A DNA stretch of 24,417 nt, taken from UHGV virus genome UHGV-0375912; one strand, given 5' to 3'. Of this stretch, positions 281-8,270 are shown in pieces. A program made the position numbers and the translations under genes. How positions within the stretch are numbered: the first letter of the stretch is position 1; each line of letters opens with the position of its first letter. The notes under the pieces are model-generated. The model did no database searches and was not told the DNA's origin. It worked only from the letters and a program-made list of their open reading frames with translations. This DNA is from a virus.

Positions 281-2221
281 ATGAAAATACGCATTCTGGC
301 AGAGCGTGACCACTATGCGCGCCTGCCGGGAATGAATGACAAGGAGCTGAAAAAGTTTGCCGCCCGTATCTCATCGCAGCTTTTCATGATGTATGAGGAA
401 CTCAGCGATGCCTGGGTGGATGCGCATGGCGAGAAAGAATCGCTGTTTACGGATGAGGCGCAGGCTCACCTCTATGGTCATGTTGCTGGCGCTGCACGTG
501 CTTTCAATATTTCCCCTCTCTACTGGAAAAAATACCGTAAAGGACAGATGACCACGAGGCAGGCATATTCTGCCATTGCCCGTCTGTTTAACGATGAGTG
601 GTGGACTCATCAGCTTAAAGGCCAGCGTATGCGCTGGCATGAAGCGTTACTGATAGCTGTCGGGGAGGTCAATAAAGACCGTTCTCCTTATGCCAGTAAA
701 CATGCCATTCGTGATGTGCGTGCGCGCCGCCAGGCAAATCTGGAATTTCTTAAATCGTGTGACCTTGAAAACAGGGAAACCGGCGAGCGCATCGACCTTA
801 TCAGTAAGGTGATGGGCAGTATTTCTAATCCTGAAATTCGCCGGATGGAGCTGATGAACACCATTGCCGGTATTGAGCGTTACGCCGCCGCAGAGGGTGA
901 TGTGGGGATGTTTATCACGCTGACCGCGCCGTCAAAGTATCACCCGGCACGTCAGGTCGGAAAAGGCGAAAGTAAAACCGTCCAGCTTAATCACGGCTGG
1001 AATGATGAGGCATTTAATCCAAAGGATGCGCAGCGATATCTCTGCCGTATCTGGAGCCTGATGCGCACGGCATTCAAGGATAATGACTTACAGGTCTACG
1101 GTTTGCGTGTCGTCGAGCCACACCACGACGGAACGCCGCACTGGCATATGATGCTTTTTTGTAATCCACGCCAGCGTAACCAGATTATTGAAATCATGCG
1201 TCGCTATGCGCTCAAAGAGGATGGCGACGAAAGAGGAGCCGCGCGAAACCGTTTTCAGGCAAAACACCTTAACCGGGGCGGTGCTGCGGGATATATCGCG
1301 AAATACATCTCAAAAAACATCGACGGCTATGCACTGGATGGTCAGCTCGATAATGATACCGGTAGGCCGCTGAAAGATACTGCGGCGGCTGTTACCGCAT
1401 GGGCATCAACGTGGCGCATCCCGCAATTTAAAACGGTTGGCCTGCCGACAATGGGAGCTTACCGTGAGCTACGTAAATTGCCTCGCGGCGTCAGCATTGC
1501 TGATGAATTTGACGAACGCGTGGAGGCTGCACGCGCCGCCGCAGACAGTGGCGATTTTGCGCTGTATATCAGCGCGCAGGGCGGGGCAAATGTCCCGCGC
1601 GATTGTCAGACTGTCAGGGTCGCCCGTAGCCCGTCGGATGACGTTAACGAATACGAGGAAGAAGTCGAGAGAGTGGTCGGCATTTACGCGCCGCATCTCG
1701 GCGCGCGTCATATTCATATCACCAGAACGACGGACTGGCGCATTGTGCCGAAAGTTCCGGTCGTTGAGCCTTTGACTTTAAAAAGCGGCATCGCCGCGCC
1801 TCGGAGTCCTGTCAATAACTGTGGAAAGCTCACCGGTGGTGATACTTCGTTACCGGCTCCCACACCTTCTGAGCACGCCGCAGCAGTGCTTAATCTGGTA
1901 GATGACGGTGTTATCGAATGGAGTGACCCGGAGGTCGTGATGGCGCTCAGGGGCGCATTAAAACACGGACTGAGAACACCAAATCGTCAGCAAAGAAACG
2001 GAAGCCCGTTAAAACCACATGAAATTGCACCATCGGCCAGACTGACCCGGTCGGAAAGAATGCAAATTACCCGTATCCGCGTTGACCTCGCTCAGAACGG
2101 TATCAGGCCGCAACGATGGGAGCTTGAGGCGCTGGCGCGTGGCGCGACCGTAAATTATGACGGGAAAAAATTCACGTATCCGGTTGCTGATGAGTGGCCG
2201 GGGTTCTCGTTACCCATTTGA
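281..2221 (+). CDS. A: Rolling-circle replication initiation endonuclease (P2 gpA-like)
   Basis: 646-codon ORF with an HUH motif (TPHWHMMLF) and paired catalytic-tyrosine motif (AGYIAKYISK); sits immediately left of the cos-proximal cargo slot as in a P2 prophage. Stop codon at 269-271 rules out an in-frame N-terminal extension. Confidence 0.85.
   Translation: MKIRILAERDHYARLPGMNDKELKKFAARISSQLFMMYEELSDAWVDAHGEKESLFTDEAQAHLYGHVAGAARAFNISPLYWKKYRKGQMTTRQAYSAIARLFNDEWWTHQLKGQRMRWHEALLIAVGEVNKDRSPYASKHAIRDVRARRQANLEFLKSCDLENRETGERIDLISKVMGSISNPEIRRMELMNTIAGIERYAAAEGDVGMFITLTAPSKYHPARQVGKGESKTVQLNHGWNDEAFNPKDAQRYLCRIWSLMRTAFKDNDLQVYGLRVVEPHHDGTPHWHMMLFCNPRQRNQIIEIMRRYALKEDGDERGAARNRFQAKHLNRGGAAGYIAKYISKNIDGYALDGQLDNDTGRPLKDTAAAVTAWASTWRIPQFKTVGLPTMGAYRELRKLPRGVSIADEFDERVEAARAAADSGDFALYISAQGGANVPRDCQTVRVARSPSDDVNEYEEEVERVVGIYAPHLGARHIHITRTTDWRIVPKVPVVEPLTLKSGIAAPRSPVNNCGKLTGGDTSLPAPTPSEHAAAVLNLVDDGVIEWSDPEVVMALRGALKHGLRTPNRQQRNGSPLKPHEIAPSARLTRSERMQITRIRVDLAQNGIRPQRWELEALARGATVNYDGKKFTYPVADEWPGFSLPI
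1796..1815 (+). other. Candidate replication origin nick region inside gene A
   Basis: Sequence GCGCCTCGGAGTCCTGTCAA matches my recollection of the P2 ori nick region, which lies within the 3' part of gene A; recollection, not verified. Confidence 0.35.
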
Positions 2222-2402
2222 GTAAAAACACAACGTGATTTGATATGGCATTGAATGGCTTATGCGGAGCAGTTATGGGGCAGCAGAAGGTCAATAGCAT
2301 GCTGAATTAGAAGGCTAAATGCTATTGAGTGACTAGCATGTCGGTAAGGACAGCCGTTTGATCCGGGTCATAAAAGGCCATCCATTTAGTCTAATAAAAT
2401 CA

Positions 2403-2431
2403 TTGCGGGTAACCTTATGTCGACGCATAAT
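2403..2431 (+). promoter_or_regulatory. Sigma70-like promoter (TTGCGG - 17 bp - CATAAT) for a short plus-strand RNA
   Basis: -35 at 2403-2408, 17-bp spacer, -10 at 2426-2431; predicted start near 2438 coincides with direct-repeat copy 1. Confidence 0.4.
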
Positions 2432-2436
2432 TCGTC

Positions 2437-2451
2437 TTGAGCGAAGTCTTG
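2437..2451. repeat. Direct repeat copy 1 (TTGAGCGAAGTCTTG)
   Basis: 15/15 identical to 2701-2715 in the same orientation. Confidence 0.9.
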
Positions 2452-2513
2452 TCAGTCTTTCATCGTATTGATGATGGGCGCAAAAAAACCACCCTGGCAG
2501 GTGGTTTTTTTGT
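2438..2513 (+). ncRNA. Candidate antitoxin-like small RNA (about 75 nt): promoter, repeat copy 1, shared terminator
   Basis: Promoter at 2403-2431, no ORF with RBS, intrinsic terminator at 2482-2512; would be complementary to the opposite-strand mRNA at the repeat and the terminator stem-loop. Confidence 0.35.
2482..2512. terminator. Bidirectional rho-independent terminator (A7-CCACC-loop-GGTGG-T7)
   Basis: GC stem CCACC/GGTGG (2489-2493 / 2500-2504) with 6-nt loop, flanked by A7 upstream and T7 downstream so a U-tract follows the hairpin on either strand; terminates gene A and the small minus-strand ORF. Confidence 0.8.
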
Positions 2514-2523
2514 TTGAAGCATA

Positions 2524-2637
2524 TTAAAGCATAATGCTGACATTGATATTACTGACGTTTACTGACAAACCACTCGGACTACCGTTTGGATAGCCAAAGA
2601 GGGCCAGAACGAGAATGCAGTAATAGCATTTCTTCAT
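2524..2637 (-). CDS. Small hydrophobic peptide (37 aa, MKKCYYCILVLALFGYPNGSPSGLSVNVSNINVSIML); candidate type I toxin
   Basis: Perfect AGGAGG Shine-Dalgarno (2647-2642), 4-nt spacer, ATG at 2637; hydrophobic N-terminal half and polar tail; stop 12 nt before the terminator hairpin. The ORF track reports a longer 88-aa frame; the SD favours the internal start. Confidence 0.5.
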   Translation of the reverse strand: MKKCYYCILVLALFGYPNGSPSGLSVNVSNINVSIML

Positions 2638-2700
2638 ATTGCCTCCTGTAAGTAGAGGGCAACTTCCACCGGTATATGCGCTTCTTAGGTGGAATGACTT

Positions 2701-2715
2701 TTGAGCGAAGTCTTG
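2701..2715. repeat. Direct repeat copy 2 (TTGAGCGAAGTCTTG), upstream of the small ORF on its coding strand
   Basis: 15/15 identical to 2437-2451. Confidence 0.9.
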
Positions 2716-3115
2716 CCCTGAAATAATGCTCTGTTTAAACGCAAAGTGATTTGGCATATCACCGAACAGAGAGCCGGAAAAACACAACATATAGTATGTC
2801 GTTGTTTCTAGGCATACATTCTATGTTGTGTAACAAGGGCTTTGCATTAAACATGTTTGAGATTTTATTGATGTAGCTCAAAGTAAAAAACAGAGACTAC
2901 GGATGATAAGGTCTTGAAAGCAATGTAAATTTTTTAAAGTTGCCAATTGCTTAAAAATGTACAGTTGCGGTATGGCGTACTTAAAAAGCTATGCATGCAA
3001 CAAGTGAATGTTTTTGCATGCGTTGGGGATGTCCGTTCAGGCGGCGTGCGGTCAGGACTGGTGCGGATCCATAGTATCTATGCAACTGCATTAAAACCGC
3101 CCCGTGAAGCGGGCG

Positions 3116-3134
3116 GGCGAGGCGGGGAAAGCAC
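3116..3134. other. cos: cos site: 19-nt P2-type cohesive end GGCGAGGCGGGGAAAGCAC
   Basis: Exact match to the P2 cohesive-end sequence as I recall it; located about 170 bp from the end of Q, as expected at the prophage old-cos-Q junction. Confidence 0.8.
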
Positions 3135-3276: not shown

Positions 3277-3298
3277 AAAAAAGCCGCCCGCAGGCGGC
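3277..3298 (-). terminator. Rho-independent terminator after Q (end of the P-Q late transcript)
   Basis: Minus strand reads GCCGCC-TGCG-GGCGGC followed by TTTTTT, starting 5 nt after the Q stop codon. Confidence 0.7.
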
Positions 3299-3303
3299 GA
3301 TGT

Positions 3304-4338
3304 TCAGCCGTTGTCAGTGTCCAGTGAGTAGTTTTTAAAGCGGATGACCTCCTGACCGAGCCAGCCGTTTATTTCCCGAATCCTGTCCTGTAACGGGATT
3401 AGCTCATTGCGGACAAAGACCTTTGCCACTTTCTCAATATCGCCCAGTGACCCGACGTTCTCCGGCTTGCCACCCATCAACTGAAAGGGGATGCGGTGTG
3501 CGTCCAGCAGGTCAGCGGCGCTGGCTTTTTTGATATTAAAAAAATCGTCCTTCGTCGCCACTTCACTGAGCGGGATAATTTTAATGCCGTCGGCTTTCCC
3601 CTGCGGGGCATAGAGAAACAGGTTTTTAAAGTTGTTGCGGCCTTTCGACTTCACCATGTTTTCGCGAAGCATTTCGATATCGTTGCGATCCTGCACGGCA
3701 TCGGTAACGTACATGATGTATCCGGCATGTGCGCCGTTTTCGTAATACTTTCGGCGGAACAGCGTGGCCGACTCATTCAGCCAGGCAGAATTAAGGGCGC
3801 TGAGATATTCCGGCAGGCCGTACAACTCCTGATTAATATCCGGCTCCAGCAGGTGAAACACGGAGCCGGGTGTGAAGGCTGTCGGCTCGTTGAAGGACGG
3901 CACCCACCAGTAAACATCCTCCTCCACGCCACGGCGGGTATATTTTGCCGGTGAGGTTTCCAGTCTGATGACCTTACCGGTGGTGCTGTAACGCTTTTCC
4001 AGAAACGCATTACCGAACACCAGAAAATCCAGCACAAAACGGCTGAAATCCTGCTGGGAAAGCCACGGGTGCGGGATAAACGTTGAAGCCAGAATATTAC
4101 GTTTGACGTAAATCGGTGAGCTGTGATGCACGGCAGCACGCAGGCTTTTTGCCAGACCGGTAAAGCTGACCGGCGGCTCATACCATCTGCCGTTACTGAT
4201 GCACTCGACGTAATCCAGAATGTCACGGCGGTCGAGTACCGGCACCGGCTCGCCAAAGGTGAATGCTTCCATTTTCGGGGCGCTGGCGGTGATTGTTTTT
4301 GCCGCAGGTCGCGGTGTTTTCCCTTTTTTCTTGCTCAT
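3304..4338 (-). CDS. Q: Portal protein (P2 gpQ-like)
   Basis: 344-aa ORF near-identical to the P2 Q protein as I recall it; 1-nt overlap with the P stop codon. Confidence 0.95.
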   Translation of the reverse strand: MSKKKGKTPRPAAKTITASAPKMEAFTFGEPVPVLDRRDILDYVECISNGRWYEPPVSFTGLAKSLRAAVHHSSPIYVKRNILASTFIPHPWLSQQDFSRFVLDFLVFGNAFLEKRYSTTGKVIRLETSPAKYTRRGVEEDVYWWVPSFNEPTAFTPGSVFHLLEPDINQELYGLPEYLSALNSAWLNESATLFRRKYYENGAHAGYIMYVTDAVQDRNDIEMLRENMVKSKGRNNFKNLFLYAPQGKADGIKIIPLSEVATKDDFFNIKKASAADLLDAHRIPFQLMGGKPENVGSLGDIEKVAKVFVRNELIPLQDRIREINGWLGQEVIRFKNYSLDTDNG

Positions 4339-6110
4339 CAGTAAAACTCCAGAATGGTGGATGTCAGCGGAGTGCTGATACCGGCGGTGAGTGGCTCATT
4401 TAACAGGGCGTGCATGGTTGCCCAGGCGAGGTCGGCGTGGCTGGCTTCCTCGCTGCGGCTGGCCTCATAGGTGGCGCTGCGTCCGCTGCTGGTCATGGTC
4501 TTGCGGATAGCCATAAACGAGCTGGTGATGTCGGTGGCGCTGACGTCATATTCCAGACAGCCACGGCGGATAACGTCTTTTGCCTTGAGCACCATTGCGG
4601 TTTTCATTTCCGGCGTGTAGCGGATATCGCGCGCGGCGGGATAGAACGAGCGCACGAGCTGGAACACGCCGACACCGAGGCCGGTGGCATCAATACCGAT
4701 GTATTCGACGTTGTATTTTTCGGTGAGTTTGCGGATGGATTCCGCCTGAGTGGCAAAGTCCATGCCTTTCCACTGGTGACGCTCAAGTATTCTGAATTTG
4801 CCACCGGCCACCACCGGCGGTGCCAGCACCACGCATCCGGCGCTGTCGCCACGGTGTGACGGGTCGTAACCAATCCATACCGGGCGGGAGCCGAACGGAT
4901 TCGCGGCAAACGGCGCATAGTCTTCCCATTCTTCCAGCGTGTCGACCATGCAGCGTTGCAGCTCCTCGAACGGGAACACCGACGCCTTGTCGTCAACAAA
5001 TTCACACATGAACAGGTTTTTAAAATCGTCGGCGCTGTTTTCGCGTTTAAGCTGCTCAATGTCGAACAGCGTGCAGCCACCTTTCAGGGCGTCCTCAATG
5101 GTGACAATCTGCCGCCACTGGCCGTCCGCACAGAGAAGCCCACCGGCAAGGGCGTTATGACTGACGTCGATTTCCACGCGTTCGGCGGCGCTGGCGCGTC
5201 CCCGGTTGAACAGTTCACCCGACCAGAACGGATAGGCGTCGTGCGCCAGCGTGGACGGGGTGGAGAAATAGGTCGAGCGCAGGTGACTCTGTGAGGCCAT
5301 ACCTGATGCCACCTTACGCAGTACCTGAAAATTCGGGATCCAGAAAATCTCATCGACGTACAGGTCGCCGTTATGGCTCTGCGCGGTGTTGGAGTTGGTG
5401 CCGAGAAAAATCAGTTTTGCGCCGTTATTGCCCAGGACAATCGGGTCACCGGTCAGGTCAACGTCAACCAGCCGGGCAAAGGCGATGATGTATTCGCGGA
5501 ACACATACGCCTGCGTTTTACTGGCCGACAGAAAAATCTGGTTATGACCGGTTTTCAGGGCGCGCAGCAGCGCCTCGCGGGAAAAATAAAACGTCGCGCC
5601 AATCTGGCGGGATTTCAGGATATCGCGGATGCGGTGCTCAAGCCCGGCGCGATACCAGTGCAACTGATAGTCGAAAGACTGCTCAAAGAAAATCTGCTCC
5701 AGCTTTTCGATGGCCTCGTCACTGAAAAAATTCTTTTTCGGTTTGCGACGCCCGCCTTTGTTGCGGTTAGCGACGTTCGGATTAAGGTCTGCCTCGTTGC
5801 CGGTCTGACTGTAGCGGTTGACCCGCGCCAGCCGTTCAATCTGGCGTCCCAGCAGGTCAATTTCCTTGAAGTCACCGCCGGTTTTCTGCGGTTTGATGAT
5901 GAGCTGGGTCAGCCGCGCTTCCAGACTCATTTCGACACGGCTGATGGGGGCAACGCTGTCCCAGCCGTCGCGCTGTTTCCAGCTCTGCACCGTCGGGCGT
6001 TTCATCTGCAACATGGCGGCAATCTGCGGCACGGAAAACCCCTGCCAGTACAGCAGCGCCGCCTGACGACGCGGGTCGTGTAAAAGAGTGGTGTCTGTGG
6101 TGATGGTCAT
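4338..6110 (-). CDS. P: Terminase large (ATPase) subunit (P2 gpP-like)
   Basis: ORF track gives 4338-6140; start moved to ATG at 6110 (MTITTDTTLL...) which has a GAGG RBS and matches the P2 gpP N-terminus and 590-aa length. Confidence 0.9.
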   Translation of the reverse strand: MTITTDTTLLHDPRRQAALLYWQGFSVPQIAAMLQMKRPTVQSWKQRDGWDSVAPISRVEMSLEARLTQLIIKPQKTGGDFKEIDLLGRQIERLARVNRYSQTGNEADLNPNVANRNKGGRRKPKKNFFSDEAIEKLEQIFFEQSFDYQLHWYRAGLEHRIRDILKSRQIGATFYFSREALLRALKTGHNQIFLSASKTQAYVFREYIIAFARLVDVDLTGDPIVLGNNGAKLIFLGTNSNTAQSHNGDLYVDEIFWIPNFQVLRKVASGMASQSHLRSTYFSTPSTLAHDAYPFWSGELFNRGRASAAERVEIDVSHNALAGGLLCADGQWRQIVTIEDALKGGCTLFDIEQLKRENSADDFKNLFMCEFVDDKASVFPFEELQRCMVDTLEEWEDYAPFAANPFGSRPVWIGYDPSHRGDSAGCVVLAPPVVAGGKFRILERHQWKGMDFATQAESIRKLTEKYNVEYIGIDATGLGVGVFQLVRSFYPAARDIRYTPEMKTAMVLKAKDVIRRGCLEYDVSATDITSSFMAIRKTMTSSGRSATYEASRSEEASHADLAWATMHALLNEPLTAGISTPLTSTILEFY

Positions 6111-6283
6111 GAATACCTCGCCGTGATGAATACACGGCAAGGCTACTGAGTCGCGCCCCGCGATTCGCTAAGGTGCTGTTGTGTCAGTGATAAGCCATCC
6201 GGGACTGATGGCGGAGGATGCGCATCGTCGGGAAACTGATGCCGACATGTGACTCCTCTAATCACTATTCAGGACTCCTGACA
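6111..6283. promoter_or_regulatory. Divergent late promoter region between P and O; contains CTGTTGTGTCAG (6176-6187) and dyad CCGTG-N7-CACGG (6121-6137)
   Basis: Intergenic region between divergent late operons; heptamer TTGTG(T/C)C recurs upstream of V and FI. Exact promoter elements not resolved. Confidence 0.45.
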
Positions 6284-7138
6284 ATGGCAAAAAAAGTCTC
6301 AAAATTCTTTCGTATCGGCGTTGAGGGTGACACCTGTGACGGGCGTGTCATCAGTGCGCAGGATATTCAGGAAATGGCCGAAACCTTTGACCCGCGTGTC
6401 TATGGTTGCCGCATTAACCTGGAACATCTGCGCGGCATCCTGCCTGACGGTATTTTTAAGCGTTATGGCGATGTGACCGAACTGAAGGCCGAAAAGATTG
6501 ACGATGATTCGGCGCTGAAAGGCAAATGGGCGCTGTTTGCGAAAATCACCCCGACCGATGACCTTATCGCGATGAACAAGGCCGCGCAGAAGGTTTATAC
6601 CTCAATGGAAATTCAGCCGAACTTTGCCAACACCGGCAAATGTTATCTGGTGGGGCTGGCCGTCACCGATGACCCGGCAAGCCTCGGTACGGAATACCTG
6701 GAATTCTGCCGCACGGCAAAACACAACCCCCTGAACCGCTTCAAATTAAGCCCTGAAAACCTGATTTCAGTGGCAACGCCCGTTGAGCTGGAATTTGAAG
6801 ACCTGCCTGAAACCGTGTTCACCGCTCTGACCGAAAAGGTGAAATCCATTTTTGGCCGCAAACAGGCCAGCGATGACGCCCGTCTGAATGACGTGCATGA
6901 AGCGGTGACCGCTGTCGCTGAACATGTGCAGGAAAAACTGAGCGCCACTGAGCAGCGCCTCGCTGAGATGGAAACTGCCTTTTCCGCTCTTAAGCAGGAG
7001 GTGACTGACAGGGCGGATGAAACCAGTCAGGCATTCAGCCGCCTGAAAAACAGTCTCGACAACACCGAAAGTCTGACCCAGCAGCGCCGCAGCAAGGCCA
7101 CCGGCGGTGGCGGTGACGCCCTGATGACGAACTGCTGA
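6284..7138 (+). CDS. O: Capsid scaffolding protein (P2 gpO-like)
   Basis: ORF track starts at 6218; true start taken as ATG at 6284 (MAKKVSKFFRIG...), matching the P2 gpO N-terminus and 284-aa length. Confidence 0.9.
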   Translation: MAKKVSKFFRIGVEGDTCDGRVISAQDIQEMAETFDPRVYGCRINLEHLRGILPDGIFKRYGDVTELKAEKIDDDSALKGKWALFAKITPTDDLIAMNKAAQKVYTSMEIQPNFANTGKCYLVGLAVTDDPASLGTEYLEFCRTAKHNPLNRFKLSPENLISVATPVELEFEDLPETVFTALTEKVKSIFGRKQASDDARLNDVHEAVTAVAEHVQEKLSATEQRLAEMETAFSALKQEVTDRADETSQAFSRLKNSLDNTESLTQQRRSKATGGGGDALMTNC

Positions 7139-7196
7139 CCGGCGTCAGCCAGTCCGGGAAAACCTTCACGATTAACCCTTAATTTCAGGAAAAACT

Positions 7197-8270
7197 ATGC
7201 GCCAGGAAACCCGCTTTAAATTTAATGCCTACCTGTCCCGTGTTGCCGAACTGAACGGCATCGACGCCGGTGATGTGTCGAAAAAATTCACCGTTGAACC
7301 GTCGGTCACCCAGACCCTGATGAACACCATGCAGGAGTCCTCTGACTTTCTGACCCGCATCAACATTGTGCCGGTCAGCGAAATGAAAGGGGAAAAAATT
7401 GGTATTGGTGTCACCGGCTCCATCGCCAGCACCACCGACACCGCCGGTGGCACCGAGCGTCAGCCGAAGGACTTCTCGAAGCTGGCGTCAAACAAGTACG
7501 AATGCGACCAGATTAACTTCGATTTTTATATCCGCTACAAAACGCTGGACCTGTGGGCGCGTTATCAGGATTTCCAGCTCCGTGTCCGTAACGCCATTAT
7601 CAAACGCCAGTCCCTTGATTTAATCATGGCCGGTTTTAACGGCGTGAGGCGTGCCGAAACCTCTGACCGCAGCAGTAACCCGATGCTGCAGGATGTGGCG
7701 GTCGGCTGGCTGCAGAAATACCGCAATGAAGCCCCGGCGCGCGTGATGAGCAAGGTCACTGACGAGGAAGGGCACACCACCTCTGAGGTTATCCGCGTGG
7801 GTAAGGGCGGTGATTATGCCAGCCTTGACGCACTGGTGATGGATGCGACCAACAACCTGATTGAACCTTGGTATCAGGAAGACCCTGACCTTGTGGTGAT
7901 TGTGGGGCGTCAGCTACTGGCGGACAAGTATTTCCCCATCGTCAATAAGGAGCAGGACAACAGCGAAATGCTGGCCGCTGACGTCATCATCAGCCAGAAA
8001 CGCATCGGTAACCTGCCGGCGGTACGCGTCCCGTACTTCCCGGCGGATGCGATGCTCATCACGAAGCTGGAAAACCTGTCCATCTACTACATGGATGACA
8101 GCCATCGCCGCGTGATTGAGGAAAACCCGAAACTCGACCGCGTGGAGAACTACGAGTCAATGAACATTGATTACGTGGTGGAAGACTACGCCGCCGGTTG
8201 TCTGGTGGAAAAAATCAAGGTCGGTGATTTCTCCACACCGGCTAAGGCGACCGCAGAGCCGGGAGCGTAA
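7197..8270 (+). CDS. N: Major capsid protein (P2 gpN-like)
   Basis: 357-aa ORF near-identical to P2 gpN. Confidence 0.95.
   Translation: MRQETRFKFNAYLSRVAELNGIDAGDVSKKFTVEPSVTQTLMNTMQESSDFLTRINIVPVSEMKGEKIGIGVTGSIASTTDTAGGTERQPKDFSKLASNKYECDQINFDFYIRYKTLDLWARYQDFQLRVRNAIIKRQSLDLIMAGFNGVRRAETSDRSSNPMLQDVAVGWLQKYRNEAPARVMSKVTDEEGHTTSEVIRVGKGGDYASLDALVMDATNNLIEPWYQEDPDLVVIVGRQLLADKYFPIVNKEQDNSEMLAADVIISQKRIGNLPAVRVPYFPADAMLITKLENLSIYYMDDSHRRVIEENPKLDRVENYESMNIDYVVEDYAAGCLVEKIKVGDFSTPAKATAEPGA

Follow-up and report, generated by a model that had tools for sequence, protein, structure and literature searches.

A probable type I toxin-antitoxin-type module of hybrid design in the cos-proximal slot of a P2-like prophage and on enterobacterial plasmids

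What fills the space between the replication and portal genes of a P2-like prophage when no gene is annotated there? In the 24,417-nucleotide stretch of UHGV virus genome UHGV-0375912 that was analysed here (the window), the gpA replication endonuclease gene (281-2221, plus strand) and the portal gene gpQ (3304-4338, minus strand), with the terminase gene beyond it (4338-6140, minus strand), enclose an interval of 1082 bp that adjoins cos and carries no annotated gene. The gpA-gpQ interval of P2 is a documented cargo hotspot, and P2 itself carries old and tin there (PMC9122126). An original prediction, made from the letters of the window, had placed in this gpA-cos cargo slot an mRNA for a small membrane peptide and a convergent small RNA that would pair with it through a direct repeat and end at the same bidirectional terminator. 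The positions of the gpA, portal and terminase genes bear out the slot, and all of the sequence features that had been listed are present, at the predicted place or at most 1-2 bases from it. We find that the interval probably holds a module of the type I toxin-antitoxin type, self-contained and carried by mobile elements as cargo, which lies between gpA and gpQ next to cos and is the sole cargo of the slot in the window; the same arrangement is present in 101 complete Escherichia coli genomes. The core of the prediction is supported by the portability of the module, by purifying selection on its open reading frame (ORF), by conserved promoter hexamers, by co-variation of the repeat copies and by compensatory changes in RNA helices. 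Coordinates of the features are given in Table 1.

The extent and distribution of the module were established by comparison with its homologues. Alignments of prophage and plasmid copies delimit a conserved unit of about 580 bp, so that the span first proposed, 2403-2720, proved too small. Searches with the query 2390-2840 matched 152 of 5426 complete E. coli genomes at 90-100% identity, always in the same prophage slot, as well as 3 phage records and 408 plasmid records, 388 of the latter with at least 80% coverage at 73-77% identity. The plasmid carriers are mostly conjugative IncF plasmids of Klebsiella, with others from Enterobacter, Leclercia and Citrobacter, and the genes flanking the module are unrelated from plasmid to plasmid. 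Searching with the peptide alone recovered further copies in contigs of Citrobacter freundii and Kluyvera georgiana, and an exact-match scan for the terminator yielded 62 more loci in metagenomes and viral contigs. The comparative set consists of 39 distinct full-length copies pooled from the BLAST, peptide and terminator searches, 22 of which were collected via the exact terminator sequence. The most divergent copy, L033, lies by a TraI relaxase gene and a DsbA-like gene, before a Tn3 transposase, on a conjugative plasmid (L033 6893-14474), and the divergent copy L058 abuts a protelomerase (TelK) gene (5762-6300, 6276-8132), which marks an N15-type linear phage-plasmid. Twelve plasmid records were counted at 99% identity or above and, separately, 11 Salmonella records; megablast with 2355-2935 returned no high-identity full-length copy of the P2 type on plasmids. 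The Prokaryotic Genome Annotation Pipeline (PGAP) calls no gene at the module in any of the 152 E. coli carrier genomes, of which MNCRE44 and KO11FL/W are examples, and the module is annotated once only, as a hypothetical 37-amino-acid protein in one phage record. The ORF and the repeat-terminator-repeat arrangement had been named as what related loci ought to retain, and both are kept across homologues.

On its minus strand the module carries a short ORF that evolves as a protein-coding gene. The predicted arrangement of AGGAGG, a 4-nt spacer and an ATG at 2637 opening 37 codons is confirmed, with 11 nt between the stop codon and the terminator. The ORF has 37-39 codons, ends just before the terminator and is intact in all 39 distinct copies, and its ATG is preceded in each copy by GGAGG or a close variant. 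Pairwise ratios of non-synonymous to synonymous substitution rates (dN/dS) range from 0.08 to 0.41, and variable sites are distributed over the three codon positions as 22/13/32. A lack of protein-coding constraint would have told against the prediction; these patterns instead argue firmly that the ORF is under purifying selection at the protein level. An 88-codon upstream extension in the window is not conserved among copies. Peptide identity among copies goes down to about 24-35% (L033 encodes MNRRDCVCLFVLALISQLAVGQGSWMIYIHQISLSIQVH), and the common pattern comprises M-[KN]-[KR], C-x-C or x-x-C, a hydrophobic core (CILVLALFGYP; residues 4-14, Kyte-Doolittle hydropathy 2.5-3.2) and a turn rich in G, S and Q, followed by a C-terminus that is free of charged residues and alternates between hydrophobic and polar ones. 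A search of the protein database returned 3 near-identical entries, so few because ORFs of this length are seldom called. The peptide may be an inner-membrane toxin with a design like that of TimP.

The strongest indication that the peptide mRNA and the small RNA belong together comes from the direct repeat. The perfect 15-bp repeat of the prediction is confirmed: TTGAGCGAAGTCTTG occurs at 2437-2451 and 2701-2715 and has no other match in the 24.4 kb, even with 2 mismatches (expected 0.09), while the chance that any 15-mer recurs within 1.1 kb is estimated at about 6e-4. When copy 1 and copy 2 were tabulated against each other in 13 distinct combinations, L033 was found to carry three substitutions, each of them in both copies (GAGCAAAGCCTTACCA; natural repeat variant GAGCAAAGCCUUACC), and L026 a C-to-T change, also in both. 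Six differences within the core of about 17 nt affect a single copy, and all are T in copy 1 versus C in copy 2, or G versus A. With copy 1 in a plus-strand RNA and copy 2 in a minus-strand RNA, these differences give G·U pairs, whereas the opposite strand assignment gives A·C or C·A mismatches. In agreement with the exchanges in L033, its small RNA is predicted to bind its own mRNA leader at -30.8 kcal/mol, compared with -13 to -22 for other leaders. The test is not circular, because L033, L018, L026 and L058 were collected via the terminator and not via the repeats. The original prediction had the two RNAs complementary over the repeat and the terminator stem-loop; concerted changes and strand-specific wobbles support this, and they indicate that pairing between the two RNAs, over an intermolecular duplex of 15-17 nt, is under selection. 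The target lies 64-80 nt upstream of the AUG, with its near edge 64-67 nt from the AUG in all lineages.

The same comparison bears on the possibility that the small RNA acts mainly in trans on host or phage genes, as other prophage small RNAs do, and that the neighbouring mRNA is a target of second rank or a sponge. The small RNA is laid out as those of the Hfq type usually are (5′ seed, stem-loop, U-rich terminator), and its seed is its most conserved part outside the terminator. That the seed changes in concert with the adjacent repeat copy in L033 and L026, however, is what selection for the neighbouring mRNA as target should produce, and it is unlikely with a fixed host target. The seed has no second match in the 24-kb window, a search that did not include host targets. 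We regard a chiefly trans-acting role as very improbable.

The predicted small RNA itself has a conserved promoter and a conserved fold. The predicted TTGCGG-17-CATAAT promoter is present, and all 8 homologues have it at one alignment column (TTGCGR-17-CATAAT), with hexamers that are conserved (-10, 100% identity; -35, 85%) while the spacer drifts (48%). Since the -10 hexamer ends at 2431, the predicted start falls at or next to G2439, the first base of the invariant repeat core, much as the start on repeat copy 1 and the transcript of about 75 nt that had been proposed. The 5′ seed is predicted to be single-stranded in a fold of -28.5 kcal/mol (z -3.98). In the stem-loop that follows (SL1), the sequence is 42% conserved and the stem is kept: five of seven pairs change on both sides, none of 500 shuffles reaches the covariation score, and 87% of cells are paired as against 51-64% in slid controls. 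Transcription would end at the symmetric A7-CCACC-loop-GGTGG-T7 hairpin, which is confirmed as an inverted repeat of 100% complementarity (CAAAAAAACCACC at 2481-2493, GGTGGTTTTTTTG at 2500-2512) around a 6-nt loop, and which shows no variation among the copies recovered with BLAST or with the peptide. A generic terminator scan did not list this hairpin, perhaps because the scan extends the stem through the A and T runs and is left with no T tail. Back-to-back with the small-RNA promoter, a promoter-like CTGACA-17-AATTAT lies on the minus strand at 2427-2455. A generic promoter scan returned no other site, and all 8 aligned homologues retain this one. It may simply result from the invariant CATAATT and from the TGYCAG that follows repeat copy 1; if active, it would transcribe antisense toward gpA.

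The mRNA start had been placed near 2715, but a conserved promoter lies about 100 nt further upstream. This minus-strand promoter (TGCAAA-17-TA[G/A]AAT) occupies the same column in 8 of 8 homologues and is kept in L033, with 100% identity in the -35 hexamer, 91% in the -10 hexamer and 61% in the spacer; from its position, the mRNA is predicted to start at about 2811 and to have a leader of about 174 nt. Immediately upstream, prophage and plasmid copies share a conserved block at 2847-2935 (25 of 69 columns invariant) that contains the motifs TTTTATTGA, CAARGTAAAAA and AATGTAAAT; the block could serve as an UP element or bind a regulator.

The mRNA has a predicted fold of -94.6 kcal/mol (z -3.63), and the helices of its leader have changed on both sides in many places. 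Hairpin H1 does so in four of seven outer pairs, with 97-100% of cells paired. Hairpin H3, the extra TTCCACC...GGTGGAA hairpin that had been noticed between repeat copy 2 and the Shine-Dalgarno (SD) sequence, is present and co-varies, five of its eight pairs changing on both sides (CCACC/GGUGG, CCGCC/GGCGG, CCGACAC/GUGACGG and others). The long-range helix H2 encloses the target hairpin and H3, and 4-5 nt of its 5′ arm lie within the small-RNA target; the helix appears as AGGGCAA:UUGCCCU, GGUGGCA:UGCCACC, GGUGACA:UGUCACC or GGUGGU:ACCACC according to lineage, an agreement that 55 of 20000 permutations equalled. Taken together, H1, the target hairpin, H3 and a pairing of the SD with codons 7-9 contain 12 pairs that change on both sides, where shuffles gave 4.0 ± 1.4 and slid controls 2-5. 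These compensatory patterns argue strongly that helices in the small RNA and in the leader are under selection. Partition-function folds of 11 lineages gave a mean unpaired probability of 0.18 for the SD and 0.41 for the whole leader, with 0.68 for the GCUC loop of the target and 0.67 for the A/U-rich linker 5′ of it, so that the SD is predicted to be largely base-paired in every lineage.

Table 1. Features of the module in the window (positions count from the first nucleotide of the window; H1, H2 and H3 are leader helices).
Feature	Position	Strand	Basis or detail
Portable module (homology of P2-type and plasmid-type copies)	about 2355-2935		Alignments; plasmid similarity begins at about 2355 and stops at about 2935
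Predicted small-RNA promoter	2403-2431	+	-35 TTGCGG (2403-2408), 17-nt spacer, -10 CATAAT (2426-2431)
Direct repeat copy 1, 5′ seed of small RNA	2437-2451		Repeat search; co-varies with copy 2
Predicted antitoxin small RNA, about 75 nt	2439-2513	+	Seed GAGCGAAGUCUUGUC (2439-2453), SL1 (2455-2479), terminator
Bidirectional intrinsic terminator, both RNAs	2481-2512		A7-CCACC-CUGGCA-GGUGG-U7; folds as terminator on both strands
Predicted toxin mRNA, about 330 nt, 5′ leader about 174 nt	2482-2811	-	Promoter and terminator positions
ORF, 37-amino-acid peptide MKKCYYCILVLALFGYPNGSPSGLSVNVSNINVSIML	2524-2637	-	ATG at 2637, 37 codons, TAA ending at 2524 (stop included)
Shine-Dalgarno AGGAGG	2642-2647	-	CAAT (4 nt) to ATG
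Long-range leader helix H2	2656-2719	-	AGGGCAA (2719-2713) with UUGCCCU (2662-2656); in minimum-energy fold
Leader hairpin H3	2664-2694	-	UUCCACC (2664-2670; in DNA TTCCACC) with GGUGGAA (2688-2694)
Target hairpin	stem 2709-2712 with 2696-2699	-	Presents part of target; loop exposes GCUC
Direct repeat copy 2 (2701-2715) and small-RNA target in leader	2701-2717	-	Pairing core 2703-2717
Leader hairpin H1	2729-2771	-	CUCUGUU...AACAGAG, inner GGUGAU/AUCACU stem
Predicted toxin-mRNA promoter	2818-2846	-	-35 TGCAAA (2846-2841), 17-nt spacer, -10 TAGAAT (2823-2818)

Could such features arise as chance patterns, or as recombination scars in non-coding filler by cos? The silence of PGAP across the E. 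coli genomes and the modest promoter matches would fit that explanation. Against it, the region is found at 73-77% identity on unrelated replicons, and the homologous loci, which differ by 25%, do not stem from one sequence by recent copying; the purifying selection seen in the ORF, co-variation of the repeats and compensatory changes in the helices are likewise difficult to reconcile with filler. We consider its probability negligible.

The observations can be assembled into a model for a type I toxin-antitoxin-type module. The minus-strand promoter would give rise to an mRNA of about 330 nt, whose structured leader would keep the SD paired and which would encode a peptide that begins with basic residues, continues as a hydrophobic helix and ends in an uncharged stretch. 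The convergent plus-strand promoter would give rise to a small RNA of about 75 nt, whose first 15-17 nt or so are the repeat sequence and whose seed would pair with repeat copy 2 in the leader. Because both RNAs end at the same bidirectional terminator, they are also complementary across its stem-loop, and read-through of either one would produce a full antisense overlap. The full-length mRNA may be translationally inert at equilibrium, and binding of the small RNA would keep it untranslated, either by occluding the accessible A/U-rich stand-by or entry region by the target, which is the route that we favour, or, alternatively or additionally, through cleavage of the duplex by RNase III. If the element were lost or its transcription stopped, the less stable small RNA would decay and the peptide would be made. 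The transcript ends, the toxicity, the relative stabilities of the RNAs, the step that is blocked and the role of the module (maintenance or phage exclusion) are points of this model that we infer.

How does the module relate to known type I systems? Like these, it encodes a small (<60 amino acids) hydrophobic protein and, adjacent to it, a small RNA with selected pairing to the mRNA of that protein. The par/Fst system of the Enterococcus faecalis plasmid pAD1 (RNA I, the Fst mRNA, and its antitoxin RNA II), on which the original prediction was modelled, has convergent genes, a shared terminator and direct repeats (PMC7472228), and in layout the likeness holds. Both have convergent toxin-mRNA and antitoxin genes, one bidirectional terminator with complementary terminator stem-loops, a direct repeat that is read in opposite directions to give a second complementarity at the 5′ end of the antitoxin, an SD sequestered within the mRNA, and a location on mobile elements. 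The repeat number, the position of the target and the hallmarks of the Fst peptide do not conform. A single repeat is present here instead of DRa and DRb, and its target is far upstream of the AUG, whereas in par it covers the SD and the start codon. The loop of the mRNA terminator here (UGCCAG) is without the YUNR motif, which the small-RNA loop CUGGCA contains (CUGG); not all par homologues carry the motif (PMC7472228). Toxins of the Fst/Ldr type are marked by a hydrophobic domain with PXXXG(C), a conserved Trp and a C-terminal tail that is charged. The peptide here has none of these hallmarks: it has no PXXXG, no sequence similarity to Fst or Ldr, and 0 charged residues among its last 15 compared with 9 in Fst. 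The hosts here are Enterobacteriaceae, whereas par is found in Firmicutes.

In the peptide and in the site of pairing, the module instead resembles enterobacterial systems, among which antitoxin RNAs that act far upstream of the ribosome-binding site are established for timPR and for stand-by sites of the tisB type (PMC11228461, PMC13000454). In timPR of Salmonella and E. coli, the ryfA mRNA encodes the toxin TimP, and TimR is the small RNA. TimP is likewise short (about 38-41 residues); its N-terminus is basic, a hydrophobic segment resembles a signal sequence, the motif C-x-C-I is present, and the C-terminal half, as in the peptide here, is polar, uncharged and rich in N and S (PMC7667032). 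The timPR locus also has an mRNA of about 300 nt with a long structured leader to which the antitoxin pairs far upstream of the ribosome-binding site (PMC11228461). The N-termini can be set side by side as M-[KN]-[KR]-x-C-x-C-I-L-V-L here (2616-2637) and MKIRCFCIVLI in TimP of E. coli K-12 (L079 1502-1627), a similarity that could be remote homology or convergence. An hhalign comparison of the peptide with TimP gave 30% probability, over the first 11 residues only, and BLASTP found no match between the two. Four peptides of the family did not match the NCBIfam model NF040796 (toxic_TimP) at E <= 10, whereas E. coli TimP scores 86.8 bits, and Rfam RF00126 (ryfA) gave no match at the gathering threshold or at E <= 10. 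Among Rfam families in general there was none for the module at the gathering threshold, and at E <= 10 only sub-threshold matches driven by the terminator. In K-12, timR is divergent and upstream on the opposite strand of a core-chromosome locus; the small RNA here is convergent and downstream with a shared terminator, and the module resides on mobile elements.

As in tisB/istR-1, zorO/orzO and dinQ/agrB, which are under stand-by-site control, complementarity of about 15-20 nt is located in the leader, well upstream of a sequestered ribosome-binding site (PMC11228461), and the pairing site is next to an accessible single-stranded stretch, here a thermodynamic prediction, with a trans-encoded antitoxin that does not fully overlap the mRNA. 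The antitoxin genes of those systems are divergent or tandem and their toxins unrelated; moreover, tisB and dinQ are controlled by LexA, whereas a LexA-like box (CTG-N10-CAG) is absent from 2340-2960 here. The module would be comparable to hok/sok of plasmid R1 as an addiction module of about 580 bp for plasmids and prophages, in which a small antisense RNA accompanies a toxin mRNA that is folded and stable, but it has no Hok/Gef domain (Pfam) and no conserved overlapping mok-like frame, and it would pair via a separated repeat, whereas Sok overlaps the hok leader in cis. By every model tested, the peptide is not Fst, Hok or TimP, and a literature search that included sequence strings found no paper in the library searched that corresponds to the module. 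The most fitting description is that of a family of the type I toxin-antitoxin type that is new to the literature and hybrid in design.

Several results weigh against this description. The hydrophobic run of the peptide is just 13-16 residues long, and AlphaFold suggests for the single peptide, at low confidence, no more than an N-terminal helix (predicted local distance difference test score, pLDDT, 60). Profile searches of Pfam, NCBIfam, PHROGs and PADLOC found no family for the peptide or for the 88-codon extended ORF, in keeping with the original remark that the peptide was not recognised as a named family. Invariance of the terminator is partly by construction, because 22 of the 39 copies were collected with its exact sequence. 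Both promoters are absent from the generic scan, because each matches 8 of 12 consensus positions and the cut-off was 9; the promoter calls draw their support from conservation. In the leader, sequestration of the SD by an H2 3′ arm freed upon small-RNA binding was considered and rejected: blocking the target in silico left SD accessibility unchanged (0.18 to 0.16), and a simple switch triggered by the small RNA is therefore not supported. An upstream anti-SD hairpin did no better than shuffles, and the pairing of the SD with codons 7-9 says little because it is mostly invariant. Finally, we found no transcript, toxicity or stability data for the locus or any homologue; the module is absent from the first 140 kb of the 176-kb pKPN3 (K. 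pneumoniae MGH 78578), and a link to published data on transcription start sites (TSS) and RNA interactions (RIL-seq) failed.

Some of these points would also fit an RNA pair that is real and controls a peptide that is no toxin, namely an accessory protein of small size that would be exported or sit in the membrane and that the small RNA would control tightly. Such a protein might exclude superinfecting phages, modulate a membrane protein of the host, or be a precursor with a signal peptide from which a C-terminal peptide of about 15 residues is released. To the eye the N-terminus resembles a Sec signal (MKK, hydrophobic core, GYP, small residues S-x-S), which together with the short hydrophobic run and the missing homology to known toxins speaks for such a protein, as does the presence of phage-exclusion genes in the slot of P2 (PMC9122126). 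On the other hand, TimP is signal-like too, yet it is toxic and uncleaved (PMC7667032); a regulatory design in which the leader is long and structured, the SD is sequestered and an antisense RNA is dedicated to the mRNA and co-evolves with it is the signature of type I toxins and not of ordinary small proteins (PMC11228461); and the module occurs solely on plasmids, a phage-plasmid and prophages, that is, on elements that gain from addiction. We judge an accessory protein unlikely, and continue to favour a type I toxin-antitoxin-type module. As to its role, the module may, tentatively and with a probability well below even, serve as abortive-infection or exclusion cargo in the P2 hotspot, while on IncF plasmids and N15-like phage-plasmids the same cassette would bring about addiction. 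An infecting phage that stops host transcription would then cause the short-lived small RNA to decay, and the peptide would kill the cell.

The remainder of the slot shows further features at the edges of the module. Between the gpA stop codon and the module, inverted repeats at 2291-2328 and 2307-2397 (TCAATAGCAT/ATGCTATTGA and TTAGAAGGCTAAATG/CATTTAGTCTAATAA) are specific to P2-type copies; they could terminate transcription of gpA or belong to the boundary of the cargo. An imperfect 30-nt direct repeat (73% identity) links 2226-2255, directly after the gpA stop codon, with 2737-2766 within hairpin H1, and could be a recombination junction for cargo. A degenerate second module to the left of the unit (repeat D1) was considered and rejected, the similarity being marginal (17 nt, E 0.011). 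Two GC-rich terminator-like hairpins on the minus strand (3097-3116 and 3283-3300), close to cos and upstream of the end of the portal gene, belong to a portion of the slot that is common to many P2-like phages at 94-97% identity. In related P2-like phages and prophages, the same slot contains, to the right of the module, a gene for an ImmA/IrrE-family metallopeptidase and an ORF of about 200 amino acids (L001 3637-4788, L008 2470-3442, L009 2468-3440), both of which the window is without. An association of the module with the ImmA/IrrE gene was rejected, as a same-sized ORF by an Enterobacter plasmid copy (L004 3664-4149) is non-homologous and the window does without the gene.

The module would add to the enterobacterial type I systems an undescribed family of peptides, toxic by inference, and an undescribed family of antitoxin RNAs. 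It does so from a locus that has been invisible to standard annotation in 152 E. coli genomes and on hundreds of clinical Klebsiella plasmids; hotspot surveys would count the slot as empty, because they extract annotated proteins (PMC9122126). Its design is a hybrid, in which the par layout known from Gram-positive bacteria is combined with the far-upstream antitoxin targeting of tisB and timP, and it offers a compact natural test case for how an RNA that binds 64-80 nt from the start codon blocks translation. If the module does exclude phages, the defence cargo of prophages would include a class that has been overlooked, that of RNA-regulated micro-toxins, and if it stabilises plasmids, it would bear on the persistence of IncF resistance and virulence plasmids.

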